From NCBI GenBank assembly GCA_903936565.1, contig CAIZVZ010000012.1:3778-67777 (forward strand): a stretch of DNA of 64,000 bases, read 5' to 3'. Position numbers and translations under genes: made by a program. Every line of letters begins with the position of its first letter. Position 1 is the stretch's first letter. This document shows, piece by piece, positions 13,453 to 59,163 of this stretch. A model generated the notes under the pieces. It ran no database searches and was not told where the DNA came from. It worked only from the letters and a program-made list of their open reading frames with translations. The DNA is from an uncultured bacterium. Lineage in GTDB: Bacteria; Patescibacteriota; Minisyncoccia; Phycocordibacterales; CAIZLB01.

Positions 13453-13519
13453 AATATTATCTTAAGTTTTTTTTGGGTTTGATTTTTAAGCATTCAGTAT
13501 AAAAAAAGAGAGAAGTGAA

Positions 13520-13549
13520 AAGGCCGGCCCGCGATTGCGGTCCGGCCTT
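13520..13549. terminator. GC-rich hairpin between convergent genes
   Basis: aaggccgg-ccgc-gatt-gcgg-ccggcctt, a 12-bp stem; the A-run on its left gives a U-run for the minus-strand transcript, so it acts mainly as the terminator of the 13598-14161 gene. Confidence 0.5.
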
Positions 13550-13597
13550 GCTCGTTGGGCGGAGCGGATTGTTGGTAAACTAAGGAAGCGGGGTATC

Positions 13598-14161
13598 CTA
13601 ACTTCCTGCAACAAATCTTGCTAGTCGAACCCACCACGGCGGCTGGGTTTGTCTGGTGGTTTCCACGACAATGAAGGAGAGACCGACCCCTGAGGATTCG
13701 TTCTTGTCCATATCTTCCTTAGTTACCCTGATGACGGTATATCCATCGCAGACATCAAAGTGGATAGGTTCAAACTGTTGCCCCTCGTCGCAGAGATTCA
13801 GGTAAATCTCAAGTCGCAACAATTGGCTGATAAGCTTGAACCATTCTTCTTTGGATAAATAAGTTTGGACAAGCCGCTTGATGATCCCCAAAAGGGCAGC
13901 ACAATTGCAGTTACCGGAGCGGCAGGTTGCGATTCGCTGCTCCTCTCTTTTGTTGATCTCGGCTCCCAATCGATTGAGTTCCGTGAGCAAATTATGCCTG
14001 TAGTGATACAAGCGGACAAGTCGATCGAGGTGAGAGAAGGATCCGATGATATCATCTTTGCCCTCCTTAGCTTGTCGGAGATCAAGTGATTTGGGGTCAC
14101 TGATGTCCACCTTAGCCAGTATTGCTTCAAGGCTTTTTGTGTCTGTGCTTTCGTGATTCAT
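13598..14161 (-). CDS. hypothetical protein (GC-enriched cassette gene)
   Basis: 187-aa ORF with clearly higher GC than its neighbours; no recognisable motifs apart from a CRSGNCNC cysteine cluster. Confidence 0.4.
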   Translation of the reverse strand: MNHESTDTKSLEAILAKVDISDPKSLDLRQAKEGKDDIIGSFSHLDRLVRLYHYRHNLLTELNRLGAEINKREEQRIATCRSGNCNCAALLGIIKRLVQTYLSKEEWFKLISQLLRLEIYLNLCDEGQQFEPIHFDVCDGYTVIRVTKEDMDKNESSGVGLSFIVVETTRQTQPPWWVRLARFVAGS

Positions 14162-14332
14162 GATTTCAATCTGTGGGGTGTAGTTTTACTCAATAGGTTA
14201 TTCGGTATTCACAAAAAAACAAATCAGCCCTATGCTGACCGCTTGAATTGTAAGGAACCGACTTGAATGGAATATAACATTGTATTTAGTATATGTCAAC
14301 GGTATGGTATTTGTGAAAAAAACAATGGTAAC

Positions 14333-14347
14333 TGCTATAATCTAACT
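14333..14347 (+). promoter_or_regulatory. extended -10 promoter (TGcTATAAT) with a 6-nt leader to the ATG (leaderless-type)
   Basis: tgctataatctaactATG; the same 15-mer tataatctaactatg recurs at 24439-24453. Confidence 0.45.
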
Positions 14348-17300
14348 ATGAATAAAGTAAATCCTGCACAAAGTAAGTTTGAGGAGAGATATGGTAAGCT
14401 AAATAAGCAGCAGAAGAAGGCTGTGGATACCATTGATGGACCACTATTGGTTGTTGCTGGTCCCGGCTCGGGAAAGACAGAAATACTTTCACTTCGCGTG
14501 GCAAAGATTCTAAAAGAGACCCAGGTCTTGCCATCCAATATTTTGTGTATGACATTCACGGACGCCGCTTCATCAAATATGAGAGATCGTTTGTCACGCT
14601 TGATTGGTAACGAAGCGTACAGAGTTTCTATTCACACTTTCCACAGCTTCTGTATAAACATCATTCAAAAATATCCAGAATATTTTTATAAAGGTATACA
14701 ATTTACCCCCGCCGATTCTTTGACCCAAGTTAGGATTCTTGAAGATATTTTCTATGGATTGCCTCAAGGTAATACATTCCGCGATAGCTATCATGAAGAA
14801 AAAGGTTTTTCATATCTATCTGATGCCAAAAAGCGAATAGAGCATCTCAAAAAATCTGGAATCACACCAGATGAGTTCAGAAAGATTATTGCACACAACA
14901 AGCGGTCGGCGCGTCGAGCAGAAAAAATAGTTGTTCCTGCATTCGAAGGTCGTCTCGGAAAGGATGCCTTGGAGCTTGTTAAAAACACAGTGGCGGAATT
15001 GTTCAAGGCAGCAGAGCTGGAGAATAAAGAGGATCCATTCCCACAGGAGAATTCAATATTTTTACCAATTCTTGCATCCTATGCAAACTCACTTCAGGGT
15101 ACACATGCTGATGCAATAGCGGATGATGGAAAAAATACCCAAATCTCAACTTGGAAAACAAAGTATTTAAAGATGCGAGACGATGGTACAAAAACTCTCA
15201 AGGAAATATTAGATGAAGATAAAATGGATGTATTGGCTGATGTTTATGATTTATATCGAAAGAAGATGACGAGCAAAGCATTCTTTGACTTCGACGATAT
15301 GATTCTTGATGCTATTGAAGCGATAGAGAAGCATCCTCGTTTGAAATTCGAATTACAAGAGCAATATCAATATGTTTTAGTGGATGAGTTTCAGGATACA
15401 AATAACGCCCAGATGAAGTTGGTTAATTTGATTTTGAATGCACCAGTGAACGAGGGGCGTCCAAACGTGATGGTTGTGGGTGATGACGATCAGGCAGTCT
15501 ATAAATTCCAGGGTGCTGAGCTTTCAAATATTCTAAATTTTAGAAGAATGTTCGTCGATGTTGAAATTGTCACAATGACTGATAATTATAGATCAACTCA
15601 AGATGTGCTAGATATCGCAACTCACATAATCAGAAAGGGAAGTGGGCGACTTGAAACACTCTATAAAATTGAAAAAAGTTTGAAATCATTAGGTGAGGGA
15701 TTGACTAATGGGGAGATTGTAAATAAAAAATTTAGAACTTCATTAGAAGAATATCATTTTATATCTAGAAAAATAAAGGAATTAATTGACGGTGGAACGA
15801 ACCCAGAAGATATTGCCGTGATTGCAAGAAAGCATGATGGTTTGGAAAGTTTGGTGCCTTACTTGAAGGGGGTACATGTTCCGATTAGATACAAACGCGA
15901 GCAAGATGTTTTCCTAGAGCCCCATATAATGCAGATAATTATTATTTCGAGATTCATCGCAAGTCTATCGCGCAAGGATGCAATTGAAGCTGATAATTAT
16001 TTGCCACAGATTTTGAGTTTCCCATTTTGGCAATTAGGTCGGCAAACTGTTTGGGAGATTTCCAAGGAGGCATACGAGACAAGAAAGACTTGGCTTGAAG
16101 TTATGTTGGAATACAAGGGCGATTCTATAAAGGCACCTCATAAGGTTTCTGACATAGCACATTTTCTAATTGATATTGCAAATAAGTCATTACATGAACC
16201 GCTTGAAAAAGTTTTGGATATTATAATTGGAGCGCACGTTGTGTTGGTGGCGGAGAGCGAGGATGACTTTGAGGATGATGGGGTTGGTGCCGCAGGACCC
16301 GCAGTACCCGCAGGAGCCAAGGCACAAATTGCCTCACCATTCAAGGACTATTATTTTAATAAAGAAAAGTTTGAGCACTCAAGAACGGAATATCTCTCAT
16401 TTCTTTCGAGTCTTCGGGTGTTTATTCGTGCCCTTCGTGATTATGTCGGCGAGCGTGCATTGAACGATGATACTATCTTGAGTGGAGATTTGAATGATGT
16501 AAGTTATCATTATCTTACAATAGAAGACCTAATAAAATTTGTAGATCTTAGACAAAAGAATCATTTGCCGTTAAATGATGAGAGTCCATTTGCAAGTGGA
16601 GAAAAAGCAGTGAACCTTCTTTCATCACATGGTGCGAAGGGGCTGGAGTTTGATACCGTGTTTGTTCTTTCTTGCCAGGATAATATTTGGGCAGGCAGAG
16701 GGGTAAATAATAAAATATCATTTCCAATCAACCTACCAATTCAGCCAGCTGGAGACGATGAGACAGATCAAATGAGATTGTTTTATGTTGCATTAACTCG
16801 TGCAAAGCGACATCTATATTTAACATCGTATAAAATTGCAGAGACTGGAAAGGAGTCCTCAATCCTTCGATTCATGCTTCCATCTAATGATTTTGATTAT
16901 AAAAAGTCACCAGCAGTTTTGGAAAAATTATATAATCCAGAAGATCAATCAATTGATGATAATGGTCCAGAGACGCATGAGCTTCTGACAGCATCATGGT
17001 TGTTGTATAACACACCTCCATTTTTTGGTGAAGAAATTGAGCTATTAAAGATTCCTCTTAAGGATTACAAATTATCGGTTACTCACCTTAATAACTTCTT
17101 GGATGTTAAAAGGGGTGGTCCTCAGACATTTTTGGAACAGAACCTTCTCCGATTTCCTCAGGCGAAAACTTTGGTCAGCTCATACGGGTCAACAATTCAC
17201 AAGGCAATAGAGCGTTTAATTGTTTCTAAAAAGATAGGTAAGGATGTTGGAGAATTAGATGAGGAAGGGAATATTGTTTCTTTTAGTGACTCTTTGCCTG

Positions 17301-45650: not shown

Positions 45651-45721
45651 TGGGAGATCGTCTAACGGTAGGACAGAAGCCTTTGAAGCTTTTAATCTAG
45701 GTTCGATTCCTAGTCTCCCAG
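45651..45721 (+). tRNA. tRNA-Gln (anticodon UUG)
   Basis: manual cloverleaf: 7-bp acceptor stem with the bacterial tRNA-Gln U1:A72 pair, 4-bp D stem, 5-bp anticodon stem, loop cuUUGaa, T-arm ctagg-TTCGATT-cctag, discriminator G; CCA not encoded. Confidence 0.85.
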
Positions 45722-45767
45722 CACGAGTCAGCGCAGTATCGAGGCAAGACCACAGAGCCTGGTTGAG

Positions 45768-47639
45768 TTGCGTTTCAAAATGGTTGGAGTCTTAAAAAGT
45801 GTGAGCCAATATGTTGGACAAACTATTCATAACATTATGAAAAATGAGGATAAAATATTTACAAGAGAAGATATTTATAGATTATCTTTTTGTGTTATTG
45901 TTTTGTTTTTGGTATTTATCTTACCTAAAATAGATTTATACCCAATGTTTGTAAATTTTTTGGTCCTATTGAGACCAAATATGGACCACTATCCATATGC
46001 GAACCCTCCCATATTTTTTTCGATTGGGGAAGCTTTATCATCTATTGCTATATTATTTGCTATATATCAGTTTAAGAAAGAGAAATGGAGTATTGCTTTG
46101 AGGATAAGAAGTTATATTGAACCTACAATATTTATTTGTATCATCCTCGGTATAACACTATCCTTAGTAGCATCAGTAGTTACTTTTTTTTACCCAACAA
46201 ATATTTTCCTTCTGTCAGTTTTTTGGCAAATTATATCCAGTCTTTTCATAGCCTTTTCAATTGTATTTTTATTTTTAAAAGCAACTAATATAAAGCTATT
46301 TAATAAAAATAATTCTCGTAAATTTTATGAAGTAATGGTTGGGGAATTATCTAGGCCAAGTCCTCAAAGGTTAGATGTTACGTTAGAGGCTTTATTAGAT
46401 AATTTTCAAAATATATGTACAGCTGCAAATGGAGATCGTGAATCAGAAGTTTCTAAATCATCAATAGCAATACTCGATGTGGTTTTAGGAGAGTCTTCAT
46501 TAGTTGAACTTTTGGTTACAAAAAGACTCGATGCATTACGTCATTTGATTTATATTATTGAAAAAAACAACATAAATCAGCGCCAAGCACCTGGTTTTCA
46601 AGTCATCGTAAGGAATTTATTTCTTAATGAAGAATCTTTTTTCTATAGACACCTCAATAGAGATGGTTTATCTCTTTCTTCGAATATTTATGAAAGCATA
46701 TTTGAATACCCAAAAATACTTACAAACTTCAATTTATTTGGATATCCAACTTTGGGTTATTTAAAAAGAAACGATAGTCGTGTTGGCCTAAAAGTATTTA
46801 TACAGGCATTGTCAAAAGCAATAGAAACATACTTAAAAACTGGTAACGTGCCAACAAGTTATATTAATAATGGTTTAGAGTATCTTAGTGAGGCTTTCGG
46901 AAATATTTGCACCAAGATCAGTCTTGAGGAAAGTAGAGGGGTTGATACAAAAAATGTCTTAAGTGAAGAGTGGTGGATATTATATGACATTGCAAATTTT
47001 TTAGGTCACGATTATATATTTATTGCTTACGAAGATGATCTAAACCAAGATGTTATAAGAAACGAAAGGGCTACTTCTGAAGCAAGTTTTCATTCAACTT
47101 CTACAATAAACGCAGGAATTGCAGCTGTTTTGTTTAAATCTTTTGAACAACTGTCGCATATCACTAAAACTGTGGACACTTATTATATTGTTCTAGAGTT
47201 ACTTGGTGGTGTAATGCAAGGGGAAAATTACAAAGAAGGTTACAGAGATCCTTTTGAGAAAAGAATGTGGGAGCAAATTGCAAAAAACGTTATAGGTAAA
47301 CATTACCCTAATGTTTTGAGACCTTACTTAACTTTCATTGGTTTTACATTATCTTCGGAAGATAATAATCAAAGAACAGGTTGGGTTGGTGAACAAACGG
47401 AAAGAATGAGAAGATTGCTTTACATCGATTTAAAACCTTTATTTGATAATGAAGAAAGGATGGTTAACGATAAATTAATGAAAGATATTCTCCTTCCTGA
47501 TTCAATGGATTATATAGATGGTAAATTTCTGTATGTAGATGGTTTTGGAAAAGGTGAACGGAGGATAATCAGTGAACCAGCCCCAGGGTCAAAGTCTGCT
47601 TTAGAGGGAGTTGATACTCAAACAAGATCATTGCTTTAG
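45768..47639 (+). CDS. hypothetical polytopic membrane protein (first island gene)
   Basis: several N-terminal TM helices and a large soluble C-terminal region; no motif recognised. Confidence 0.45.
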   Translation: MRFKMVGVLKSVSQYVGQTIHNIMKNEDKIFTREDIYRLSFCVIVLFLVFILPKIDLYPMFVNFLVLLRPNMDHYPYANPPIFFSIGEALSSIAILFAIYQFKKEKWSIALRIRSYIEPTIFICIILGITLSLVASVVTFFYPTNIFLLSVFWQIISSLFIAFSIVFLFLKATNIKLFNKNNSRKFYEVMVGELSRPSPQRLDVTLEALLDNFQNICTAANGDRESEVSKSSIAILDVVLGESSLVELLVTKRLDALRHLIYIIEKNNINQRQAPGFQVIVRNLFLNEESFFYRHLNRDGLSLSSNIYESIFEYPKILTNFNLFGYPTLGYLKRNDSRVGLKVFIQALSKAIETYLKTGNVPTSYINNGLEYLSEAFGNICTKISLEESRGVDTKNVLSEEWWILYDIANFLGHDYIFIAYEDDLNQDVIRNERATSEASFHSTSTINAGIAAVLFKSFEQLSHITKTVDTYYIVLELLGGVMQGENYKEGYRDPFEKRMWEQIAKNVIGKHYPNVLRPYLTFIGFTLSSEDNNQRTGWVGEQTERMRRLLYIDLKPLFDNEERMVNDKLMKDILLPDSMDYIDGKFLYVDGFGKGERRIISEPAPGSKSALEGVDTQTRSLL

Positions 47640-48964
47640 TTATTTAGATAAATTATTTTATTTTTCATTGTGATTCTAGTATCTAAATTTGCCAACATCT
47701 CTCTTTTCTCTTCAACCGTCCCTTCCGTCAAAATGTGCTCTGTATACTTCTTTGAGTCAAACTCAATTTCTAGTTTTGATTGCTTAACCCCATAAAACTG
47801 TTTTTGGAAGGTGACCATGCGTTCTCGTTCTTGTTCAAATTTTCCTTTGATAAACTTTTGATCAACCTCTATTTTATCTATCATTTCAACTAATTGCTTA
47901 ATCAATTCTTCTTCTCGTAGGTATCCACATTTGCAATCTAAGTTTTTTGACCTGTTACATCCATAGTATATGTAATGTGCTGTACCACCATTCTTGAGTT
48001 TTTTGTATTTATCTTCAGCACAAATTCCTGATCCACATAGTCCGCATGTCATTAGTCTAGAAAATGCATAGTCTTTTCTTTCGTGAGTTATTTCAGATCT
48101 CTTGAGTTGCTCACGGACTTTTTCAAAAAGTTCAATATTTATTAAAGGTTCATGTTTTCCTGTATACCAATTACCACTTTTGACAGGGTATTCAAACTTT
48201 CCATAATAAAACGGTGTTTGTAAAAGTTTATATATATTACTCAAGGTTAATGGCTTGTTGCTCGTTGAACTTCTGAAATTCATCTCAAATTTAAGCCAGT
48301 GGTATATCTTTCTACCACTCCACTTTTCATATGCTACTTTCTCAAACATTTTCTTGATAACTGGTGCTCGTTCAGTATCAATCATTACATACCCCTTTCT
48401 ATCGATTCTCTTTTCGTTCAAATATCCTGTTGGGGCAGGGGCAGGCCATAGCCCCATCTCGCACCTTGTCCTTAGTCCTCTTTTGACATTCACGCTTTTG
48501 TTGTCATTTTCAAGTTTGGCTTGCGAACATAAAATCATAAGAAGGAATTTATCACTAGGTGAGTTACTAAATACTTGCCCATAGGTTTTAATTTCAATAA
48601 GCGCCTTTTGGTCTATGAGATCCACTAAACTTCCAAGATCTCCAGCATTTCTTGATAATCTATCTGGTGCCCATGTTAATATTCCTGAATATCTTCCACT
48701 TTTGATGTACATAAGTATTTCCTTAAAAACAGGTCTTTGTCCTGAATCCTTTGCTGAATGCGATTCACGCCTAATGTCCACAATCTCTAACCCTTCTCTT
48801 TCAGCTATCTGTAGCATCTCGTGTACTTGCGATTCTATCGATAGGATCTGTCGCTCCTCAGATTCTGTTGATTTTCTTGCATAAAGGCAGTATTTTACCT
48901 TTACAGGGCTTGATAGCAGGTTCCTCGTGTCAGGGTTCACTTGTAGCGGGTTTTTTGTTTCCAT
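47636..48964 (-). CDS. large serine recombinase (resolvase/invertase-type catalytic domain, recombinase domain and zinc ribbon)
   Basis: YARKSTE...SIESQ catalytic-Ser region, ...DRLSRN..., C-terminal Cys-rich CGLCG...C region. Confidence 0.85.
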   Translation of the reverse strand: METKNPLQVNPDTRNLLSSPVKVKYCLYARKSTESEERQILSIESQVHEMLQIAEREGLEIVDIRRESHSAKDSGQRPVFKEILMYIKSGRYSGILTWAPDRLSRNAGDLGSLVDLIDQKALIEIKTYGQVFSNSPSDKFLLMILCSQAKLENDNKSVNVKRGLRTRCEMGLWPAPAPTGYLNEKRIDRKGYVMIDTERAPVIKKMFEKVAYEKWSGRKIYHWLKFEMNFRSSTSNKPLTLSNIYKLLQTPFYYGKFEYPVKSGNWYTGKHEPLINIELFEKVREQLKRSEITHERKDYAFSRLMTCGLCGSGICAEDKYKKLKNGGTAHYIYYGCNRSKNLDCKCGYLREEELIKQLVEMIDKIEVDQKFIKGKFEQERERMVTFQKQFYGVKQSKLEIEFDSKKYTEHILTEGTVEEKREMLANLDTRITMKNKIIYLNN

Positions 48965-49092
48965 GCCTACATTGATGACGTAGATTACTGAGGAAGTCTA
49001 GCTAAAATGAGTAAAATTTGGGCTTTTATAACCGATATTTATCTGCAAACTATTCTGTACTACCACGATCTTTTAGAGTAGAATGGTTTGTA

Positions 49093-51549
49093 ATGGTTAA
49101 TCCCCTGACTAATATCACGACGATCAAGAATGTTCATCTGTACAAGTTGCTGCAGGTTTTTTTAAGAGACTTTGGAACCGTCCTTGAAAGATATATTACT
49201 GACATCGTTGATACGGAAAATCCAAAATTACTTATAAGTACTAATTATGCAACTTATAAAATTAGTATTATTGATGGAGAAGAAAATAAAGTAGATAACA
49301 AAACTATAGATATAGGACGTGACGCTCTTGATAAAGACTTAAATAAAATAAAATATTTTATTCGTAGACAGTTTATTGCTGATGAAGAGTTGTCAAACCT
49401 TTACTTGAGGCGTGGTTCTGATATAAAACCACATGAAGTACAAGAGGGTGCACTCAATAGTCTTGCTGCGGCTCGAGATGATAATTTAAAAAGAGCTTTA
49501 GTTGTGTTTGCCACTGGACTTGGAAAAACTATTTTATCAGCCCTTGATGTTAAAATGTTTGACGCAAAAAAAGTTTTATTTATTGTTCATATCAATGAGA
49601 TTTTAAGACAGACTAAAGATGCTTTTGAAAAGGTTATGCCTGAAAGGAGAGATGATTTTGGTTTTTTTACAGGCAAACAAAAAGATAGACAAAAAGACAT
49701 TTTATTTACTTCTATACAGACGATTGGTAGGCAAAAACATATCGAAACATTTCCTCCAAGCTACTTCGATTATATTATAGTTGATGAGACACACCATGTA
49801 GCGGCACCTACTTATAGGAAAATATTTGAATATTTTACACCGAAGTTCTTTCTTGGTCTAACAGCAACACCAGATAGAATGGACAAGAAAGATATATTGA
49901 GTTTTTATAACGAGAATGTTGTATTTGAAATGGATCAGAAGGCTGCAATTGAACAGGGTTATTTAACCCCATTTCGATACCTAGGTTTTAAAGATAATAT
50001 AGATTATTCCGACATTTACTTTAATGGATTCAAATATGACACCAAAGATCTTAATAAACATCTTCTTATTAATGAGCGTGATGATGCCATAATAGAGAAA
50101 TTTAAATTGCACGCTTTTGATAGAAAAACAATCGGATTCTGTGCGTCTATTGAACATGCAGAAAGATGTGCAAAAAAATTCAACGAGGCTGGAATAAAAT
50201 CGATAGCAATTCATTCAAAAAGTTTAGAGCTTGATGACTATGAGGATAAAACAAAAGGATCTCTTGTGGACCATTTTAGGAATAATAGATGTCAAATTGC
50301 ATTTACTGTTGATATGTTCAATGAGGGGGTCGATATTCCAGATGTTTCTTGCTTACTTTTTTTGCGTCCGACGGAATCAAAGACAATATTTGTTCAGCAT
50401 ATGGGACGTGGCCTACGTATAGCGCCAAGCAAAGAAAATGTGATTATTCTAGATTTTATCGGTAATTATAGGACTGCAAACCTAATATTAGAGGCTCTAG
50501 ATATTGAGAATAATATTCGAGGTCTTAAAAAGACTTGTGTAGATAATAAAGATATGTTTATTTACGAAATTAATGGATGTGAGGTATGTTTTGAATCAGA
50601 GGTTGTAGATATATTTAAAAATAATGAAGTCCTTTATTCTAAAGAAATCAGAGAAGATGTTGTTGATATTAGGTGGAAGGAGTATTCAGAGTATTTAGAT
50701 AAATGGACTAAGGATAATCTGTATTGGAAATGTGGTCAGCATAATAAATATTTTGAAGTGCATTTCGAGGCACTGAAGATAATCAAGGAAAATAAGGGTA
50801 TTGGGGAGAAGGATTTTATTGAAAAGATTCAGAAAGTTGTTACTGAAAAATACGTTAATAAAAATATGACTGCTGGTTTCAGAGCTTTAATGTTGAGCAA
50901 GATATGTGGTTTTGTTTCGTCTGATTCGCCATTAATGCCGATGCAACCTTATGACGTTATTTACAAAATAACTAAGGATTTTTCAGATTTAAGAAAATAT
51001 GAGGATATATTAACTCAACAACTTGAAAAAATATTCTATTGGAACCCTATCTATGGTTCATATAATAAATATGTTGATTTGACTAAAAGGGTTTCATTTA
51101 AGGATTTTAAAATATACCCGTTTTTCTTAATATACGATGTAATGATTAGATTACTCGATGATTACGGTTCTGAACCGTGCATAAGTAAGTTTGAATTTGA
51201 TACTTTTTTGTCTATTACTAAAGAACACATAGAATCAAGAGATGTGGCGGAAAAGATATTGCGTTACCGTAATGATGACGAAAAAAAGCAGGTTGAAAAG
51301 CTTTTGAATTCAAAAAACCACATCGATTCAAGGTTTTTCGGCATTTTACATTACTGTAAATATATTAAAACTGATAAAAGAGGTGTTTCCATTAAACCTG
51401 AGTGTATTGAAGAAATACGGTTGAGAGTTGGTAAATTTAGGGGATTATATGAATCTGGAAAACTGATTATGTACAGCACAGAGTCTCCAAAAACTTATAA
51501 AGATATGCTATACTCAGAGGGTGACTTACTCAGTTTTCATGTTAACTAA
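49093..51549 (+). CDS. SF2 helicase (ResIII/DEAD-like ATPase core) with a C-terminal domain homologous to the N-terminus of the 54243-55601 product
   Basis: Walker A ATGLGKT, DEAH-like box VDETHH, motif III GLTATP; start taken at MVNPL (49093; the ORF track starts at 49018); stop codon abuts the start of the next gene. Confidence 0.75.
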   Translation: MVNPLTNITTIKNVHLYKLLQVFLRDFGTVLERYITDIVDTENPKLLISTNYATYKISIIDGEENKVDNKTIDIGRDALDKDLNKIKYFIRRQFIADEELSNLYLRRGSDIKPHEVQEGALNSLAAARDDNLKRALVVFATGLGKTILSALDVKMFDAKKVLFIVHINEILRQTKDAFEKVMPERRDDFGFFTGKQKDRQKDILFTSIQTIGRQKHIETFPPSYFDYIIVDETHHVAAPTYRKIFEYFTPKFFLGLTATPDRMDKKDILSFYNENVVFEMDQKAAIEQGYLTPFRYLGFKDNIDYSDIYFNGFKYDTKDLNKHLLINERDDAIIEKFKLHAFDRKTIGFCASIEHAERCAKKFNEAGIKSIAIHSKSLELDDYEDKTKGSLVDHFRNNRCQIAFTVDMFNEGVDIPDVSCLLFLRPTESKTIFVQHMGRGLRIAPSKENVIILDFIGNYRTANLILEALDIENNIRGLKKTCVDNKDMFIYEINGCEVCFESEVVDIFKNNEVLYSKEIREDVVDIRWKEYSEYLDKWTKDNLYWKCGQHNKYFEVHFEALKIIKENKGIGEKDFIEKIQKVVTEKYVNKNMTAGFRALMLSKICGFVSSDSPLMPMQPYDVIYKITKDFSDLRKYEDILTQQLEKIFYWNPIYGSYNKYVDLTKRVSFKDFKIYPFFLIYDVMIRLLDDYGSEPCISKFEFDTFLSITKEHIESRDVAEKILRYRNDDEKKQVEKLLNSKNHIDSRFFGILHYCKYIKTDKRGVSIKPECIEEIRLRVGKFRGLYESGKLIMYSTESPKTYKDMLYSEGDLLSFHVN

Positions 51550-53145
51550 ATGAAGAAATTCAATAAAAATATTACAGCCGAATCACATCCGTCGCATTAT
51601 ATGATGCATAAATACTGGGGTAGAAAGCCTCACAATGTTGTTCGTGACTATATTTTAAATTTTACTAAGCCTGGAGACGTTGTCCTAGACCCTTTTATGG
51701 GTAGTGGAGTTGTCGTCATAGAATCTCTAAAGATTAATCGTAAGGTAATTGGAATAGACTTAAATCCAATGGCTTGTTTTATTGCTCAGAACACAATCAA
51801 TGATGTTGATTTGGATGATTTCTCGGTTGAATTTGAAAAAATATACAAAAAAAATTATGATCTTTTTTCTAAATTGTATCTTACTAAGTGTCCAACATGT
51901 AAGACAGAAGTTCCTTTCGAAAATTCTATTTGGGAACTAGAAGATTTTGTTAAGATAAAAGGTACGTGTTTACTTTGTGGTAAGTTTACAAAAGATACTG
52001 ATTCCCATGACCACAAAACATTCAATAAATCTAAGGATATTTTTTTCGAATTGAATAGTCAAAATAAAATATTTTATCCAAAGGATGAAATATTAAAGTT
52101 CGTCAAGAGAAACGGAAAAAGTCATGTTAATCAATTTTTTACCGATCGCTCTCTTGCTGTGCTTGGATCTATTATAAAAGATATAGAGAAGATAAAAAAT
52201 ATTAATACAAAGAATTTGGTTTTGATGTGTTTTACTTCAATGTTACCAAACGTGTCTAAAATGATTCCTGGAGATAAAGATACTGTAAATGGCAGATCGG
52301 GTTGGGTAATAAGTAAGTTATGGGCTCCCAAGATACACACAGAACGCAATCCATTGAACAGTTTTAGAGAAAGATTTAAAAAAATTAAAAAAGGAAAATT
52401 AGAACTAATTGATGCTTTTAACGCAAAGGATGCAAAAATATTAAACATTGACGCTACAAACCTAAAGGTAATAAAGAGTTCATCGGTAAATTATATTTTT
52501 ACTGATCCACCGTATGGCGATAGCATTGCTTACTTTGGGTTGAGTATGTTCTGGAATTCGTGGCTTAAAAAGGTTGTGGATTATGAAAATGAAATAATAT
52601 TTGATCCTTATAGAAATAAAAAATACGAAGATTATTCGAACCGAATGAAAAAAGTGTATGAAGAGTTGTTTAGAGTTCTTAAAAATAAGAGCTATTTGTC
52701 ATTTACTTTTCACAATAGAAATTTAAATATCTGGAAAGCTGTCATGGATGCTGTAACTGATGCTGGATTTCATCTAGTTAATGTTGTATATCAAGAACAG
52801 GCAGTAGCGTCGGGTACGCAAGGTATAAACAGAAATAATACACTTCGTGGTGATTTTGTATATAATTTTTTAAAGGACTCAAGTGTTATTTCTAAAAAAA
52901 ATAGCAACTTAAGTAAAATAGATAATGAGATAGAAATAATAAAGAAAGTAGAAAAATGGATTTTAAAAGCTGAAGGATCAATAACTTCTGACGCGTTATA
53001 TGAAAAGTTAATCCCGTTCATTGTTGAAGGTCAATTGTATGCTGATAATAACGGATTGGTTATGAACATAGAAGATGTGTTAAAGAGACATTTTGAATAT
53101 AGTTTTATCAAAACAAAAAAAGAATATGGCTGGCAAAAAAAATAA
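51550..53145 (+). CDS. DNA N6-adenine/N4-cytosine methyltransferase
   Basis: AdoMet motif I VLDPFMGSGVV at the N-terminus and catalytic motif IV DPPYG at ~residue 310; atg directly follows the helicase stop. Confidence 0.8.
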   Translation: MKKFNKNITAESHPSHYMMHKYWGRKPHNVVRDYILNFTKPGDVVLDPFMGSGVVVIESLKINRKVIGIDLNPMACFIAQNTINDVDLDDFSVEFEKIYKKNYDLFSKLYLTKCPTCKTEVPFENSIWELEDFVKIKGTCLLCGKFTKDTDSHDHKTFNKSKDIFFELNSQNKIFYPKDEILKFVKRNGKSHVNQFFTDRSLAVLGSIIKDIEKIKNINTKNLVLMCFTSMLPNVSKMIPGDKDTVNGRSGWVISKLWAPKIHTERNPLNSFRERFKKIKKGKLELIDAFNAKDAKILNIDATNLKVIKSSSVNYIFTDPPYGDSIAYFGLSMFWNSWLKKVVDYENEIIFDPYRNKKYEDYSNRMKKVYEELFRVLKNKSYLSFTFHNRNLNIWKAVMDAVTDAGFHLVNVVYQEQAVASGTQGINRNNTLRGDFVYNFLKDSSVISKKNSNLSKIDNEIEIIKKVEKWILKAEGSITSDALYEKLIPFIVEGQLYADNNGLVMNIEDVLKRHFEYSFIKTKKEYGWQKK

Positions 53146-54250
53146 AAAATTAAAAATTATAGATTTGTTCGCAGGGGTAGGAGGTCTTTCGTCGGGATTT
53201 AGAAAGGCAGGTTTTGAAGTTGTTTCAGCTAATGAATACAAACCTGATATAGCAAATACTTATATAAAAAATCACCCAGAAACGAAGATGTTTATAGAGG
53301 ATATTTCAAAAATTAAATCATCAGATCTGGTTAACGGAGAAGAAATTGACGTAATCGTAGGAGGACCTCCTTGTCAGGGATTTAGTATGGCGGGTCGCAG
53401 AATAAGAAATGATGGAGCTTTTTTAAATGATCCAAGAAACGAGTTGTTTAAGGAATTTCACCGGATAGTAAAAGATGTAAGACCAAAGGTTTTTGTTATG
53501 GAAAATGTTGCGGCAATGCTTAATATGCATGGGGGTACTGTAAAAGATAAAATAATTGAAATATTCAAAGAGATTGGGTATGAGACTGAAGTCAGAGTAC
53601 TTCTTGCTGCGGAATATGGAGTGCCACAACTTAGAAAAAGAGCTGTGTTTATTGGTAATAGGATTGGATTTAGTCCAAAGGATTTTTTTCCAAATAAAAC
53701 TCATGGCCCTCTATGTTCAAAACCTTTTGTTTCAGTAGGGGAAAGTATTTTAGATTTACCTAAAATATTGTCAGGGGCCGGAGAGTTTGAATCAGAATAT
53801 TTAAATAGTTCAGACATGACTAGTTATGAGAAGGAAAGAAAATCTAACTCCAAAAAACTTTATAATCACCAATCAACTAAACACGACAAAAGAATTATAG
53901 AGTTGCTTAAAAATATTAAACCAGGGCAAGGGCGAATTCATATACCTAAAGAGTTACAGACAAAATCTATTCATAGTGGTGCTTTTGGAAGACTAGAAAA
54001 AGGCAAACCAGCATATACTATTACGACTAGGTTTGATACACCTTCTGTAGGTAGAGTAACCCACCCCGTCTCTCATAGAGCCCTGACTCCTCGCGAGGCT
54101 GCAAGAATTCAATCTTTTGACGACGATTTTATTTTTTATGGAAATAAAAGTTCGATTGGAGTTCAGATTGGAAACGCTGTTCCCCCTCTATTAGCCAAGG
54201 CTATAGCATTGAAAATTAGAAGTGTCTTAGATAAACAAAAAAATGATTAA
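53126..54250 (+). CDS. DNA cytosine-5 methyltransferase
   Basis: motif I LFAGVGG, motif IV GGPPCQGFS, motif VI ENV, motif X QIGNAVPP; overlaps the upstream gene by 20 nt. Confidence 0.9.
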   Translation: MAGKKNKKLKIIDLFAGVGGLSSGFRKAGFEVVSANEYKPDIANTYIKNHPETKMFIEDISKIKSSDLVNGEEIDVIVGGPPCQGFSMAGRRIRNDGAFLNDPRNELFKEFHRIVKDVRPKVFVMENVAAMLNMHGGTVKDKIIEIFKEIGYETEVRVLLAAEYGVPQLRKRAVFIGNRIGFSPKDFFPNKTHGPLCSKPFVSVGESILDLPKILSGAGEFESEYLNSSDMTSYEKERKSNSKKLYNHQSTKHDKRIIELLKNIKPGQGRIHIPKELQTKSIHSGAFGRLEKGKPAYTITTRFDTPSVGRVTHPVSHRALTPREAARIQSFDDDFIFYGNKSSIGVQIGNAVPPLLAKAIALKIRSVLDKQKND

Positions 54251-55601
54251 AAAATATATTGAATTATTAAAAAACAAGGGTACTAAAAACTTTTGGAAAA
54301 AGGCTAAGCAAAAGGAGTATACAAAAGATGCTGTAAATAAAATATATCATGATTTGACTGCTCATTTTGAAGATCTAACCACACGTAACAGTATAACTTT
54401 GCGTTATTTAGGTTTAGTAATTAATCTAGGATCTGATAATCTAAAAGTTTCAAATGCTGGAGAAACATTTATAAGTTCCCCTTATAAGCAAAAAATATTA
54501 GATGAACAGATAATGAAAATTTATCTTGATTGCCCAAGACTCAATGATAATCTTTCCATTAAAATTGCCCCAATGGAGATTCTTCTGCATGTCTTGTATA
54601 AAATAAATTTTGTATCTTTCGAGGAGTATCAACTTTTCGTCTGTTGGATAAATAGCAAAGAGGATGTTGATCTGGCGCTTGATTTAATAAGCGAATATAG
54701 ACAATCTAATAAACAGTATTTATATATGTATGCCTTGAAAGAAAAGAGTGAAGAACTTGGTATAAGTGATTTTTCAGATAATGTTAAAAGATTTTTTGAC
54801 ATGTTATTAATATCTTCTTATATAACAAAAGATTATAATAATAATTTGTCATTAGCACTTTCTAAAAAAGACACCGAAATAATATTAGAGAGCTTTTCAT
54901 TAAGAGATTTTAGTGACGAACATTATTTTGATTATCTAACTACTAATAATGGTTGGCAGATTTACTCTATAAATCCGAATTATATTCGTGTCATTGAAAG
55001 TCTTGAGAAAAAAACAACAGAAGAGCAAGAAGATATAATAAATAATATAACGAACGACTTGAAGTTTCCAAATATTGACGACGTCAAACCTAAGATTATA
55101 GAGGTTGAAATTGATGATAGTCGTAGTGAGGAAGAGTCAACCCCTACAAGAAAAAAACTATCGCCACATAAAATTGACTTTGAAATTAGGGACAATAATA
55201 ATAGGGCGGCAGGGGATTTTGCGGAAAAAATCGTAATTAAACATGAGATAGAACAACTTTCTGAGGCAAATCAAACCACGGTTGATAATGTTAAGCAGGT
55301 TTCTCTAGAGGATGACACTTTGGGGTATGATATACTCTCATTTGATTTTGATGGGGTTACTGAGAAACACATAGAAGTTAAAGCTGTGAGAAGTGAACCC
55401 TCAATATCTTTCAGATTTTATATTTCAGAAAATGAAGTTTTAATAGCAAAGAATGATCCTAATTATTATCTTTATATTGTGTTTGGGTATCTTTCTGATA
55501 CTCCTTATATATATAAGATGCCGAATCCATTCACTAAAGATATTCCAGGAGTCACAATTGATCCAATTAAATATATTGTAACTGTTAAACTTAAAAAATA
55601 A
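54243..55601 (+). CDS. putative restriction endonuclease: N-terminal domain shared with the helicase, C-terminal PD-(D/E)xK-like (DUF3883-like) motif
   Basis: GYDILSFDFD...EKHIEVKA fits a D-(x)n-E-x-K nuclease signature; 8-nt overlap with the C5-MTase stop; its N-terminal domain aligns to helicase residues ~700-830. Confidence 0.45.
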   Translation: MIKKYIELLKNKGTKNFWKKAKQKEYTKDAVNKIYHDLTAHFEDLTTRNSITLRYLGLVINLGSDNLKVSNAGETFISSPYKQKILDEQIMKIYLDCPRLNDNLSIKIAPMEILLHVLYKINFVSFEEYQLFVCWINSKEDVDLALDLISEYRQSNKQYLYMYALKEKSEELGISDFSDNVKRFFDMLLISSYITKDYNNNLSLALSKKDTEIILESFSLRDFSDEHYFDYLTTNNGWQIYSINPNYIRVIESLEKKTTEEQEDIINNITNDLKFPNIDDVKPKIIEVEIDDSRSEEESTPTRKKLSPHKIDFEIRDNNNRAAGDFAEKIVIKHEIEQLSEANQTTVDNVKQVSLEDDTLGYDILSFDFDGVTEKHIEVKAVRSEPSISFRFYISENEVLIAKNDPNYYLYIVFGYLSDTPYIYKMPNPFTKDIPGVTIDPIKYIVTVKLKK

Positions 55602-55617
55602 AATTAATATCATATTT

Positions 55618-56016
55618 TTAAGTACTACTATCAAGTTCCGTCTTTTTTGATTCACCACTCTTGTCCTGCGGATTGTGTATCTCATATATAATCTTCTCCA
55701 CACCATGGTGAATCGGCTCAAAGAAGCCTCTAGGGCGAGGCTTTACATATTCTTTATGATTATTTTCTAACCATAATTTAGAGGCTCGAAAGTCGCCTTT
55801 CTTAATCAGAGAAATAATATGTCCTTCAGCAAGGTCGTTCACACTAGAGCGACCTTGTTTTAGTGCTTTTTCAAGTTTTTTAGCAAATCTTTTATCTTTT
55901 TCTTTCCACCTATATATAGTTGCTTTGCATATGCCAACTCGTCTACAAACAACAGATATGAGTGGAATCTCAACAAGTTCTTGAAGGAACTTTTCTTTAT
56001 CATCATGATTTTTCAT
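55618..56016 (-). CDS. HTH DNA-binding protein resembling a phage terminase small subunit
   Basis: ISVVCRRVGICKATIYRW helix-turn-helix; co-oriented with, and overlapping, the ParB-methylase gene as in phage packaging modules. Confidence 0.4.
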   Translation of the reverse strand: MKNHDDKEKFLQELVEIPLISVVCRRVGICKATIYRWKEKDKRFAKKLEKALKQGRSSVNDLAEGHIISLIKKGDFRASKLWLENNHKEYVKPRPRGFFEPIHHGVEKIIYEIHNPQDKSGESKKTELDSST

Positions 56017-57343
56017 GTATCTTTATTGCTTTTTTGCCAGTAAGATTTTCCCAGCGTTTTTTTATGACTTCTGCATATACTGGAGATTTCTCCATCAAGA
56101 AACACCTGCGGTTCATTCTGGTTGATGCCATAAGTGTTGACCCACTTCCTCCAAATGGTTCTACAATTAGATCATCTCTTTTGGTAAGGACTTTGATGTA
56201 GGGGATTAGTATCTCTAATGGTTTTGTGCCAAATATAACACCCTGTCCAGACGATGCTTCATCAGATGCTTTGTACTCAATGAAGTCTGTTGGACATATT
56301 TTCTTTCCTTTCTCGTACCCTTCCCATTGTGGCTTGCCTGAAATTGCATAAAGAGCTGTCTGATACTCATTCTCAAGGATTTCATCTTCTGGCTGAATAT
56401 TCATCTCTACAGAGTCTTCTGTTGTTCCAACCATAGCTATGTCATGTTTGCTAAAAAACTTATACTTAGCCGAGAAACCTTGAGTTCTGTTTGGTAAATG
56501 CCACACAAGCATGTTTTTTACCTTCCAGTATTTTTCCATCTCATTCCAAATGATTCTAATATTCTTCCAATTTTCATAAACGATTATATGAAAATTGTCT
56601 TTGGAAATATCTTTTATGTTCTTCATCCACAGTTCTGTGAAGTTGTCTGGTAGGGAATCAGTTTCAAGATATCTTCGATTCTTCTTTGCTCCAAAACCTG
56701 TAGTGACCCCATCCTTTTGTTTTGTTTTGCCAGACAAATAATCTAGTATATAAGGAGGGTCAGTAAAACACATATCGGCCTTGTGACCGTCCATGAGTGT
56801 TTGCATATCAGATTCTATAGTACTATCTCCACACATTAGTCTTGATCCATCTAAGTCATATACATCGCCCTTCTTAATGTCTATGTTTTGAATATCTAGT
56901 TTATGTAGTTCCTTTTCCAGATCAAACATCTCAGTTGTTTCTTCGGTAAGGAAGATATCGTCTAATTCTTCACTTGAAAAGCCAATGTCAGAAAGAAAAG
57001 TCTCGTCAAACTCCTTAAGTAAATCTAGATCAAATTCCCCAGTATTTTTATTTAGACGAATATTCAACTCCTTTTCTTTTTCAAGATCTGCGATATTCAC
57101 ATAAACTACAGGTATTAAATCTATACCTAGTTCTTTTGCCACTTCGTATCTGAAACACCCGCCAATTATCACATTTTCACGTCCGGGTGCATTGTTGCAT
57201 ATAATAGGATCGATAAAACCGAATCTCTTTAAAGATTCTTTTAACTGGTCGGATTGGTCCTTGGAATGTTTTCTTGGATTGTAATCTGGTACTACTAACA
57301 TGCTCGTTGAGAGATACTCAACTTTAATATTCTCCTTGTTCAT
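56003..57343 (-). CDS. ParB-like nuclease N-terminal domain fused to an N6/N4 DNA methyltransferase (phage-type orphan methylase)
   Basis: ParB-N fold residues ~1-90; DPPY motif CFTDPPYILDY; C-terminal AdoMet motif VEPFGGSGST (beta-class motif order). Confidence 0.8.
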   Translation of the reverse strand: MNKENIKVEYLSTSMLVVPDYNPRKHSKDQSDQLKESLKRFGFIDPIICNNAPGRENVIIGGCFRYEVAKELGIDLIPVVYVNIADLEKEKELNIRLNKNTGEFDLDLLKEFDETFLSDIGFSSEELDDIFLTEETTEMFDLEKELHKLDIQNIDIKKGDVYDLDGSRLMCGDSTIESDMQTLMDGHKADMCFTDPPYILDYLSGKTKQKDGVTTGFGAKKNRRYLETDSLPDNFTELWMKNIKDISKDNFHIIVYENWKNIRIIWNEMEKYWKVKNMLVWHLPNRTQGFSAKYKFFSKHDIAMVGTTEDSVEMNIQPEDEILENEYQTALYAISGKPQWEGYEKGKKICPTDFIEYKASDEASSGQGVIFGTKPLEILIPYIKVLTKRDDLIVEPFGGSGSTLMASTRMNRRCFLMEKSPVYAEVIKKRWENLTGKKAIKIHEKS

Positions 57344-57666: not shown

Positions 57667-59163
57667 ATGAGCCATATAATCTCAAAAACACTTTTTCTAG
57701 AGTACCGCTATTGCCCCAAGAATATTTGGCTTAAGCTAAATAAACGAGAATTACTTGATAAGTTCACACTTTCCGACTTTGAAAAGCATCTTGCAGAGCA
57801 GGGGAATGAAGTTGAATCATGTGCTAGAGGTTTGTTTTCCAAGGGGGTTGAAGTTAAGTCTAACGGGGAGGGTGCTTGCATAGAAACTGTGCAGCTTATA
57901 ACATCAGGAGTTAAAACACTTTTTCAATCAACGTTTATTGTCGATGGATTTATTGCTCGTAATGACATACTCCACTTCGATGAACAGAATGATTGTTGGG
58001 ACTTATTTGAAGTCAAAGGTACAAATAGTTTAAAGGAAAGTGGAGAAAGAGATCATATTGAAGATGTAGGGTTTCAAGTTTCAGTTCTTAAGCGTGCAAA
58101 TGTGAGGATAGGTAAATATTTCTTGATTCATTTAAATAAAGAATATGTACGCGACGGCGATTTAGATCTAGGTCTTCTATTTAAAATAGAAGATGTGACA
58201 GAAAAAGTAAATGAGAGATTGGTAGATATTGAAAAACAAATGGATTCAGCTCGTGAATATTTAAATAGAGAAAGTGAACCAGAAGGAGGTTGTGACTGTG
58301 TATACAAAGGGAGAGGTAAGCATTGCTCAACGTTCAAGCATTCTAACTCGCATGTGCCTGACTATTCAGTTCACGATCTTTCAAGTATAAGAGAAAAGAA
58401 AGTGACTGAATTAATAGAAAATGGAATCTTTGAGCTAAATGACATTCCAGATGAGTTTGAATTATCTGATAATCAAAAACTTCAAATAAGTGCTCATGTA
58501 AGACAATCGCCAATTATTGATTTGGGTAGTGTAAAGGATGAGTTAGATAAACTTGAATTTCCTTTATACTTTTTTGACTATGAAGCTTTTGCTCCAGCAA
58601 TTCCAATGTTCAATGGTTATAGCCCTTACAATCCAATTCCATTTCAATTTTCTTTGCACATATTAGATGCGCCAAATACTGAGATGCGACATGTTGAATT
58701 TCTGCATATGGAAAGAACTGATCCATCACATCTAGTCGCCGAGATTTTAGACAAACATATTTCAAATAAGGGGACAGTAATTGCTTGGAATAAGTCTTAT
58801 GAGACAAGAGTGAATGAACAGATAGCTGCACGCTTACCACAATACAATAGTTTATTTAGTAGAATAAATAGTTCAATGTATGATTTACGTGATATATTTC
58901 AAAAACAGTATTATGTGCACCACGGCTTTAAGGGTAAGACTTCTATAAAAAAAGTTCTTCCAATTCTTGCTCCAGATCAGCGTTATGATGTTCTAGATAT
59001 TCAAGAAGGTGGACAAGCTGCAGACGCATGGTGGAGGATGGTGTCTCCCGTCCCTGGCGATGAGGAGAAAGCTAAGATTGCAAAAGATCTAAAGATTTAT
59101 TGTGGTTTAGATACATATGCGATGTACGCGATTTGGAAGCATTTAGTTGATTTAATGAATTAA
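57667..59163 (+). CDS. two-nuclease protein: Cas4/RecB-like Fe-S PD-(D/E)xK domain plus C-terminal DEDDy 3'-5' exonuclease-like domain (DUF2779-like architecture)
   Basis: N-terminal YRYCPKNIWL, D...DLFEVKG motifs, C-x-C-x8-C cluster (GGCDCVYKGRGKHC); C-terminal FFDYEAF (Exo I), YDLRDIF (Exo II), YCGLD (Y-x3-D). Confidence 0.55.
   Translation: MSHIISKTLFLEYRYCPKNIWLKLNKRELLDKFTLSDFEKHLAEQGNEVESCARGLFSKGVEVKSNGEGACIETVQLITSGVKTLFQSTFIVDGFIARNDILHFDEQNDCWDLFEVKGTNSLKESGERDHIEDVGFQVSVLKRANVRIGKYFLIHLNKEYVRDGDLDLGLLFKIEDVTEKVNERLVDIEKQMDSAREYLNRESEPEGGCDCVYKGRGKHCSTFKHSNSHVPDYSVHDLSSIREKKVTELIENGIFELNDIPDEFELSDNQKLQISAHVRQSPIIDLGSVKDELDKLEFPLYFFDYEAFAPAIPMFNGYSPYNPIPFQFSLHILDAPNTEMRHVEFLHMERTDPSHLVAEILDKHISNKGTVIAWNKSYETRVNEQIAARLPQYNSLFSRINSSMYDLRDIFQKQYYVHHGFKGKTSIKKVLPILAPDQRYDVLDIQEGGQAADAWWRMVSPVPGDEEKAKIAKDLKIYCGLDTYAMYAIWKHLVDLMN

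Follow-up and report, generated by a model that had tools for sequence, protein, structure and literature searches.

What can a helicase contribute to a restriction-modification cassette that already encodes a site-specific nuclease of its own? The question is raised by a 64,000-nucleotide stretch of DNA (the window) from an uncultured bacterium of the Patescibacteriota (Minisyncoccia, Phycocordibacterales, CAIZLB01; assembly GCA_903936565.1, contig CAIZVZ010000012.1, positions 3,778 to 67,777 of the forward strand), where four intact plus-strand genes follow one another in the order superfamily 2 (SF2) helicase, N6/N4 methyltransferase, C5 methyltransferase and nuclease (gene 4). We consider these genes very likely to form a restriction-modification system with a Type IIS-like nuclease, a reading that is well supported. 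With less assurance, we also think it probable that a nuclease-dead, SauUSI-like translocase and the separate site-specific nuclease make up one composite, ATP-dependent, Type IIS-like restriction enzyme.

A first-pass annotation, made from the sequence alone, had described the four genes as a single operon packed stop-to-start or overlapping. Its gene labels match those from Pfam, NCBIfam and PADLOC, the junctions can be read directly in the sequence, and the locus is one operon-like restriction-modification cassette. The helicase gene (49093..51549; 818 amino acids from the ATG at 49093, which is the NCBI/ENA gene call, P0276, or 843 from an alternative TTG start at 49018) ends in a TAA (51547-51549) that abuts the ATG (51550) of the gene for an N6-adenine or N4-cytosine DNA methyltransferase (51550..53145; 531 amino acids; N6_N4_Mtase, E 1.9e-23), whose motif I is N-terminal and whose DPPY lies near residue 320. 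That gene overlaps by 20 nucleotides the gene for a C5-cytosine DNA methyltransferase (53126..54250; 374 amino acids; DNA_methylase, E 1e-74; TIGR00675 dcm), which in turn overlaps by 8 nucleotides gene 4, a Type IIS-like endonuclease of 452 amino acids (54243..55601); these genes and all domains within them are on the plus strand. A scan for promoters and terminators was uninformative: it returned 32 promoter-like sites where 33 would be expected, and none of the internal terminator candidates was convincing.

Gene 4 joins an N-terminal double winged-helix recognition domain (54243..54899) to a C-terminal NOV_C/DUF3883 nuclease domain of the PD-(D/E)xK type (55200..55601). Pfam matches the latter over residues 327-422 at 51.3 bits, against a gathering cut-off of 22.1, and the catalytic GYD...EVK residues (D363, E378 and K380; codons 55329-55331, 55374-55376 and 55380-55382) are invariant across 28 gene-4 homologues. 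Both the PD-(D/E)xK-like nuclease that the first-pass annotation had placed at 54243-55601 and the Type IIS-like layout that it had proposed are thereby borne out, the recognition and cleavage domains being separate parts of one protein. A structure model of gene 4 has a predicted local distance difference test score (pLDDT) of 82. The relation of the recognition domains to entries in the PDB came from fold comparison alone: phmmer and profile searches of PDB sequences with gene 4 and with both recognition-domain alignments returned no meaningful match, and gene 4 itself gave no match to the RE_AlwI profile at E <=0.01. An asymmetric recognition site for genes 2-4 would fit two methyltransferases of different chemistry, one per strand. 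The gene-4 family comprises 60+ clusters, nearly all from candidate-phyla-radiation bacteria. In one of its loci (L012, 2426-3692), gene 4 is broken into two open reading frames (ORFs), either by an assembly error or by occasional inactivation. In four others (L001, L002, L034 and L035), the methyltransferases are 70-78% identical to those of the window and the gene-4 nuclease merely 36-38%; there, the nuclease either diverged much faster than its methyltransferases or was exchanged.

The SF2 label that the helicase had received in the first pass stands, but a relic nuclease domain at its N-terminus had been overlooked. The ATPase/translocase core (49405..50547, residues ~105-485; Walker A GKT at 49522-49530 and DETHH at 49783-49797) matches ResIII and Helicase_C over residues 111-443, and the SF2 motifs GxGKT, DETHH, TAT and QxxGRGxR are invariant in 31 members of the family. 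This family consists of proteins of ~850 amino acids (5,960 matches at E <1e-10, the best 120 mostly full-length), and its ancestral layout is a Vsr/DUF559-like nuclease, a motor resembling the double-stranded-DNA translocases of SauUSI and HsdR, and a recognition domain. The sequence RIDFV...YAIECDGxxYHAxG precedes the motor in 91 of 118 full-length relatives, and the Pfam entries that the intact N-terminal domain matches, all below threshold, are MTES_1575 (E 9e-6), DUF559 and NERD, consistent with a predicted PD-(D/E)xK nuclease of the Vsr/DUF559 type. The MTES_1575 matches, like the RE_AlwI matches described below, fall beneath the Pfam gathering scores, and both calls lean on profile-profile and fold evidence.

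In the clade to which the window belongs (24 clusters, 61-100% identical), the first-motif aspartate of this nuclease is lost and an 11-residue deletion takes out the ExDG..H motif. What is left is a relic domain of the Vsr/DUF559/MTES_1575 type without its catalytic motifs (49093..49400, residues ~1-100); its ~100 residues are confidently folded in a model (pLDDT ~90), and hhalign aligns it with the intact N-terminal domain at Prob 70% and E 4e-5. Between L011 and L025, a pair with unsaturated synonymous divergence (dS ~0.47), the ratio of nonsynonymous to synonymous substitution rates (dN/dS) rises from 0.02 in the motor through 0.05 in the recognition domain to 0.15 in the relic. The low ratios in motor and recognition domain, together with the invariant ATPase motifs, argue against a decaying gene. 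In one locus (L006, 4783-7257), the helicase is split by an in-frame stop, the near-identical L007, L019 and L022 being intact; the split is either an assembly error or an occasional inactivation.

Helicase and gene 4 appear to read DNA with related modules. The first-pass annotation had stated that the helicase C-terminus and the nuclease N-terminus align clearly. Pairwise clarity was not recovered (BLASTP of the helicase C-terminus against gene 4 was not significant, best E 0.34), but homology was: hhalign of helicase C-termini against gene-4 N-termini gave Prob 94.7% and E 6e-8 over 203 columns, and a broader alignment of 16 helicases gave Prob 93.7% and E 1.9e-7 over 190 columns, compared with Prob <=2.8% and E >=0.016 in reversed, column-shuffled and block-shuffled controls. 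The two termini thus do not fall into unrelated families. The common region spans ~200-250 residues, roughly double the ~130 amino acids first proposed. In the helicase it forms an AlwI/BpuJI-type recognition domain (50665..51432; RE_AlwI, hhalign), a paralogue of the gene-4 N-terminus. This C-terminus matches positions 51-123 of the Pfam RE_AlwI profile (E 1.7e-4; 21.1 bits against a cut-off of 23.1), many gene-4 homologues bear the same precomputed RE_AlwI match, and a hidden Markov model (HMM) of the gene-4 N-terminus matches the helicase C-terminus of L041 at E 4e-5. Profile comparison therefore indicates that the two recognition domains are homologous, and at an identity of only ~23-24% the paralogy is an old one. 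That the helicase carries the specificity module of the endonuclease, as had been suggested, holds insofar as the domain is paralogous; identical specificity is not evident from the sequences at this level of identity, and the single methyltransferase pair that serves both proteins is the one reason to expect it.

At the sequence level, the helicase-type recognition domain is rare, as judged from the 67 matches that phmmer returned for the helicase C-terminal segment among 1.84 billion representatives; a word-indexed search with the helicase C-terminus alone found 8 fragments only and missed the full-length protein. The domain also occurs at the N-terminus of McrB-like AAA_5 ATPases of 558-654 amino acids and fused to HNH nucleases of 419-459 amino acids (proteins with either arrangement: P0252, P0269, P0270, P0272; P0217, P0253, P0266).

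How the two proteins are combined in nature was followed in loci collected via gene 4, via the helicase and by HMM scoring of all ORFs for the motor and both recognition domains (121 scored sequences, that is, 120 loci and the window). Every gene-4 locus with enough upstream sequence has the order methyltransferase, methyltransferase, gene 4, and the N6/N4 methyltransferase always adjoins the C5 methyltransferase (30+ loci). In two cases the methyltransferases are fused into one protein of 903-908 amino acids (L004, 7291-10017; L047, 2898-5609), which supports both acting on one site. The helicase lies directly upstream in most close relatives of the cassette. It is absent despite ample upstream sequence from L001, L003, L009, L024 and L030, among them loci whose nucleases are close to that of the window (65% identical in L024 and 60% in L009), so the methyltransferase pair with gene 4 looks like an autonomous three-gene Type IIS system. 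The reverse arrangement, a helicase without a gene-4-like protein beside an N6/N4 (or Eco57I-type N6) and C5 pair, is found in L039, L041, L042, L049, L050 and L120. The first-pass annotation had concluded that a helicase does not belong in such a system; its family members standing alone beside the methyltransferase pair contradict this and mark these helicases as restriction enzymes in their own right.

An orthologous methyltransferase pair (60-78% identical, in the same order) thus occurs in three configurations: with the gene-4 nuclease only (L001, L009, L024 and L030), with the helicase only (L049, whose methyltransferases are 60% and 65% identical to those of the window) and with both proteins (the window, L004 and L047). 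One pair in all three configurations implies that helicase and gene 4 are held in check by the same methylation. In L049, the gene-4 slot is occupied by a 665-residue protein (13248-15245) that we considered as a hidden recognition-domain nuclease and rejected, as it has a weak GHKL ATPase N-terminus and no recognition-domain match; its C-terminus holds a D...ExK-like motif by eye (PDLVIFD...FEFKRP). Other helicase loci have neighbours of their own. A 173-residue ORF with only a weak DUF1822 match directly follows and overlaps the intact-nuclease helicase in L042 (10549-11070) and L120 (9272-9793), both of which have a methyltransferase of the Eco57I/N6_Mtase type, and is possibly a conserved accessory gene. 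Just upstream of the intact-nuclease helicase system in L120 (5230-6338, minus strand) are a stand-alone NOV_C-like protein of 131 amino acids and a PDDEXK_1 protein of 225, both without a recognition domain.

The central observation concerns where the helicase nuclease was lost. On a simple neighbour-joining tree of the motor and C-terminus of 118 helicases, helicases with a degenerate nuclease fall in three separate places, implying no fewer than three losses: the window clade, P0127 with P0129 (sisters of the intact P0130), and P0114. Every sampled loss has a gene for a recognition-domain-nuclease partner in the same operon. This partner is of the NOV_C type in the window clade (~13 distinct loci) and with P0127 (L047), and of the HNH type with P0129 (L044) and P0114 (L046); an HMM of the helicase C-terminus picks up the N-termini of both HNH partners (E 4e-11 and 4e-10). 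A nuclease-dead helicase on its own was not found among the sampled loci. Around intact-nuclease helicases, a recognition-domain partner within ±8 kilobases (kb) was found in none of the six loci sampled (L039, L041, L042, L049, L050 and L120), even with HMMER filters off. Counted by locus group, a partner is present in 4/4 degenerate groups versus 1/7 intact groups (Fisher's exact test by hand, p ~0.015, or ~0.03 when only the three loss events are counted). The trend is small-sample but consistent, and it spans two unrelated nuclease types, NOV_C and HNH.

The sequences show which domains are present, that the two recognition domains are homologous, that catalytic and ATPase motifs are intact, that the helicase has lost its nuclease motifs, how the genes co-occur and that selection is purifying. 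On this basis we envision the following mechanism. The two methyltransferases, one producing N6-methyladenine (m6A) or N4-methylcytosine (m4C) and the other 5-methylcytosine (m5C), would each mark one strand of the asymmetric sites of the host. The AlwI/BpuJI-type double winged-helix domain of gene 4 would read the unmethylated site, and its NOV_C-type domain, which has one PD-(D/E)xK active site, would cut. The helicase would be a former self-contained restriction enzyme whose own nuclease decayed in the lineage of the window. It would most likely now serve as an ATP-driven motor subunit that binds unmethylated sites through its own recognition domain, translocates in a predicted ATP-dependent manner and delivers or activates cleavage by gene 4, for example, by uniting two single-active-site nucleases. 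In CglI/NgoAVII, ATP-driven translocation on double-stranded DNA activates a nuclease whose active sites are too few for it to break both strands unaided (PMC4267653, PMC5737866, PMC5861437), and the R2H2 complexes of CglI, each with one active site, must communicate along DNA before cleavage (PMC5737866). In SauUSI, target recognition switches on ATP-driven translocation on double-stranded DNA, and collisions produce breaks (PMC7913695). The proposed promotion of cleavage has its parallels in these two systems, in communication along DNA and in translocation with collisions, respectively.

Several points weigh against this composite enzyme. The partnership of helicase and nuclease is read from comparative genomics, and it is only their co-occurrence in genomes that suggests the two may be coupled, physically or functionally. 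The co-occurrence test covers ~11 independent locus groups, selected in part for the length of their contigs, rather than a full census, and one locus (L004) combines an intact helicase nuclease with a partner. Recognition domains that are only ~23% identical may not share a specificity, and the homology of relic and intact N-terminal domains is moderately supported (Prob 70%). Finally, gene 4 is probably self-sufficient, with the helicase dispensable for basic restriction, given L024 and L009, which have no helicase.

One alternative is that there is no partnership and that two independent activities share one methylation umbrella, gene 4 being an ordinary ATP-independent Type IIS enzyme and the helicase a non-cutting, site-triggered translocase that might, for example, stall or strip replication or packaging complexes on unmethylated DNA. 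Both proteins do stand alone elsewhere with the same methyltransferase pair, gene 4 occurs without the helicase in the close relatives L009 and L024, and strong purifying selection acts on the motor and recognition domain irrespective of the nuclease. Such independence nevertheless leaves unexplained why the nuclease was lost only where the operon holds a recognition-domain-nuclease gene, and why this recurred with nucleases as unrelated as NOV_C and HNH; nor was a lone nuclease-dead helicase found. We therefore regard it as unlikely, although it deserves more weight than the remaining alternatives.

The helicase could also be a redundant leftover: a helicase-type restriction system would have acquired gene 4, which made the nuclease of the helicase dispensable, and the helicase gene would now be heading for loss. 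Helicase-less three-gene loci among close relatives (L009 and L024) would be the end state, in line with the stop codon that splits the helicase of L006 (in one assembly, its identical relatives being intact) and with a relic domain that evolves ~7x faster than the motor. A leftover would hardly persist, however, as an old and diverse nuclease-dead clade (24 clusters, down to 61% identity) of full-length ORFs with invariant ATPase motifs and a dN/dS of 0.02-0.05, and we judge this improbable. Least credible of all, to the point that we would be surprised to see it confirmed, is a modification-dependent, SauUSI-like Type IV enzyme that lies beside a Type IIS system by chance in a defence island. 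In both PADLOC and the PDB, the motor does match SauUSI best, but the match spans the motor only (profile positions 216-590 of 953), both the PLD nuclease and the SRA/DUF3427 reader of 5-methylcytosine (5mC) are absent, and the recognition domain is a paralogue of that in the neighbouring, modification-blocked nuclease. The stop-to-start linkage to methyltransferase pairs in every locus examined would, moreover, be self-destructive for a methyl-dependent enzyme.

Does the composite enzyme belong to a system that is already named? PADLOC has no named system of this composition, its matches covering single domains only, and full-text literature searches for the relevant domain and enzyme names gave no description of the arrangement, in agreement with the first-pass annotation, which had not recognized the combination. 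That annotation had likened it to Type ISP and Type III enzymes, which make poor comparators, because each methyltransferase here has a gene of its own and no specificity subunit goes with it. Closer parallels are CglI/NgoAVII, LlaJI and SauUSI. CglI/NgoAVII resembles the cassette, which is known here from its genes alone, in being a restriction-modification operon with an asymmetric site, a separate site-specific nuclease and an SF2 helicase-like ATPase, and differs in its domain families and in a motor that has no recognition domain. Among solved structures, SauUSI (7clg) comes nearest to the motor (E 8e-78, 34% identity over ~360 residues), and it shares the SF2 translocase core subfamily and the nuclease-motor-recognition-domain order of the ancestral helicase family. 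Unlike the cassette, it has a PLD nuclease and an SRA-like 5mC reader, is methyl-dependent and has no cognate methyltransferase, whereas the cassette has a Vsr/DUF559-like nuclease (degenerate in the window), an AlwI-like reader and two linked methyltransferases. The PADLOC mREase_IV and 7clg matches start at about position 215, past the PLD, and end at ~590 of 953, and there is no Pfam match to PLD.

LlaJI consists of four co-oriented genes, including one methyltransferase for each strand of an asymmetric site, and restricts unmethylated DNA; its NTPase motor subunit bears a DNA-recognition domain and no catalytic centre, and its nuclease is a separate PD-(D/E)xK subunit (PMC1459862). LlaI/BsuMI-type McrBC-like systems are related to it (bioRxiv 10.64898/2026.08.31.748284). 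The cassette shares the four genes, the two methyltransferases, a recognition-domain motor without a nuclease and a separate PD-(D/E)xK nuclease; LlaJI differs in its McrB-type AAA+ GTPase motor, its McrC-like nuclease without a recognition domain and its methyltransferases, both of which produce m5C. With the AlwI family and BpuJI (N.BspD6I, 2ewf; BpuJI, 5hlt; PF09491) the cassette shares the recognition fold, whereas the cleavage domain of gene 4 is NOV_C/DUF3883 rather than an AlwI/FokI-like catalytic domain. Only positions ~50-125 of the 441-position RE_AlwI profile are matched, below the gathering score, and the full-length match expected of a family member was not found. We know of no AlwI-family system with a helicase that carries the same domain.

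More distant candidates were also rejected. Type ISP enzymes combine nuclease, motor, methyltransferase and recognition domain in a single polypeptide, whereas the cassette encodes its methyltransferases in ORFs of their own and has a nuclease of another family; LlaGI/LlaBIII (PMC2790903; 4xqk) contain a gamma-class adenine methyltransferase together with an Mrr nuclease. The HsdM and HsdS that accompany the HsdR motor of Type I systems were not found. Against Type III, the helicase carries its own recognition domain, the PADLOC REase_III match is marginal (E 4e-4) and MTase_III is absent among the 25 best methyltransferase matches. For the anti-phage systems that PADLOC names (PD-T4-1, PDC-S36, TmtA, Pbe, DISARM and Druantia), full-length signature proteins and the gene set are lacking: PD-T4-1, PDC-S36 and TmtA match only the NOV_C domain of gene 4 (residues ~263-451), PbeA matches the motor only, and the methyltransferase matches are generic. 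MhoVII (PMC12898733), in which adenine methyltransferases are fused and the nuclease is unrelated, is not the same system. Since each named family differs in at least one defining feature, we class the cassette as a variant among ATP-dependent, multi-subunit restriction-modification systems and assign it to no named family. More tentatively, it could exemplify an undescribed class in which translocase and nuclease subunits with paralogous Type IIS recognition domains operate under one strand-specific methyltransferase pair, and in which the motor repeatedly cedes its nuclease to an interchangeable partner, NOV_C or HNH.

The surroundings of the cassette suggest how it moves. A tRNA-Gln gene (45651..45722, plus strand; ARAGORN) bounds on its left side the low-GC island in which the cassette lies: GC content falls from ~0.40-0.44 to 0.30-0.34 past 46 kb, directly after the tRNA. 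Between this gene and a large serine recombinase that is divergent from the cassette (47636..48964, minus strand; Resolvase, Recombinase and Zn_ribbon_recom) is a 623-residue protein without a family match (45768-47639). Together, tRNA-Gln, GC drop, 623-residue protein and recombinase look like the left end of an integrated element. The right end is undefined, because no attachment (att) repeat of the tRNA-Gln 3' end of at least 14 nucleotides was found downstream within the window. In L032, the cassette is flanked by a recombinase copy 65% identical to that of the window. Other relatives adjoin serine recombinases, integrases, terminases and other defence genes, and three are on IMG/VR viral contigs. 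On account of these neighbours and viral contigs, we conclude that the system travels on integrative elements of candidate-phyla-radiation bacteria (Paceibacterota/Nomurabacteria, Saccharibacteria and Liptonbacteria). Downstream of gene 4, on the minus strand, are overlapping genes for a small-terminase-like helix-turn-helix (HTH) protein (132 amino acids) and a ParB-N-domain DNA methyltransferase (446 amino acids; together 55618-57343), a typical phage pairing that places a third methyltransferase next to the cassette. Further on is a DUF2779 protein of 498 amino acids with a weak Cas4-like N-terminus (57667-59163); another DUF2779 protein (492 amino acids) adjoins the helicase-type system of L042 (14153-15631), so this linkage may be recurrent.

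ATP-dependent restriction enzymes with a split motor and nuclease are rare and mechanistically puzzling, CglI/NgoAVII and LlaJI being the known cases. If the undescribed class suggested above is real, the loci described here would be natural intermediates on the way from single-chain motor nucleases to multi-subunit restriction machines. The three natural configurations, together with the repeated loss of the motor nuclease where a partner is present, give access to two questions: what a Type IIS enzyme gains from a translocase, and by what route restriction complexes of several subunits come about. The recognition domain emerges as a portable module, found on NOV_C, HNH, SF2-motor and McrB-like AAA+ proteins, which is of relevance to enzyme engineering, and new Type IIS specificities may be obtainable from both the target-recognition-domain (TRD)–NOV_C endonuclease and the helicase-type enzyme. 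Candidate-phyla-radiation bacteria and their mobile elements, a setting in which defence is poorly characterized, commonly carry the system.

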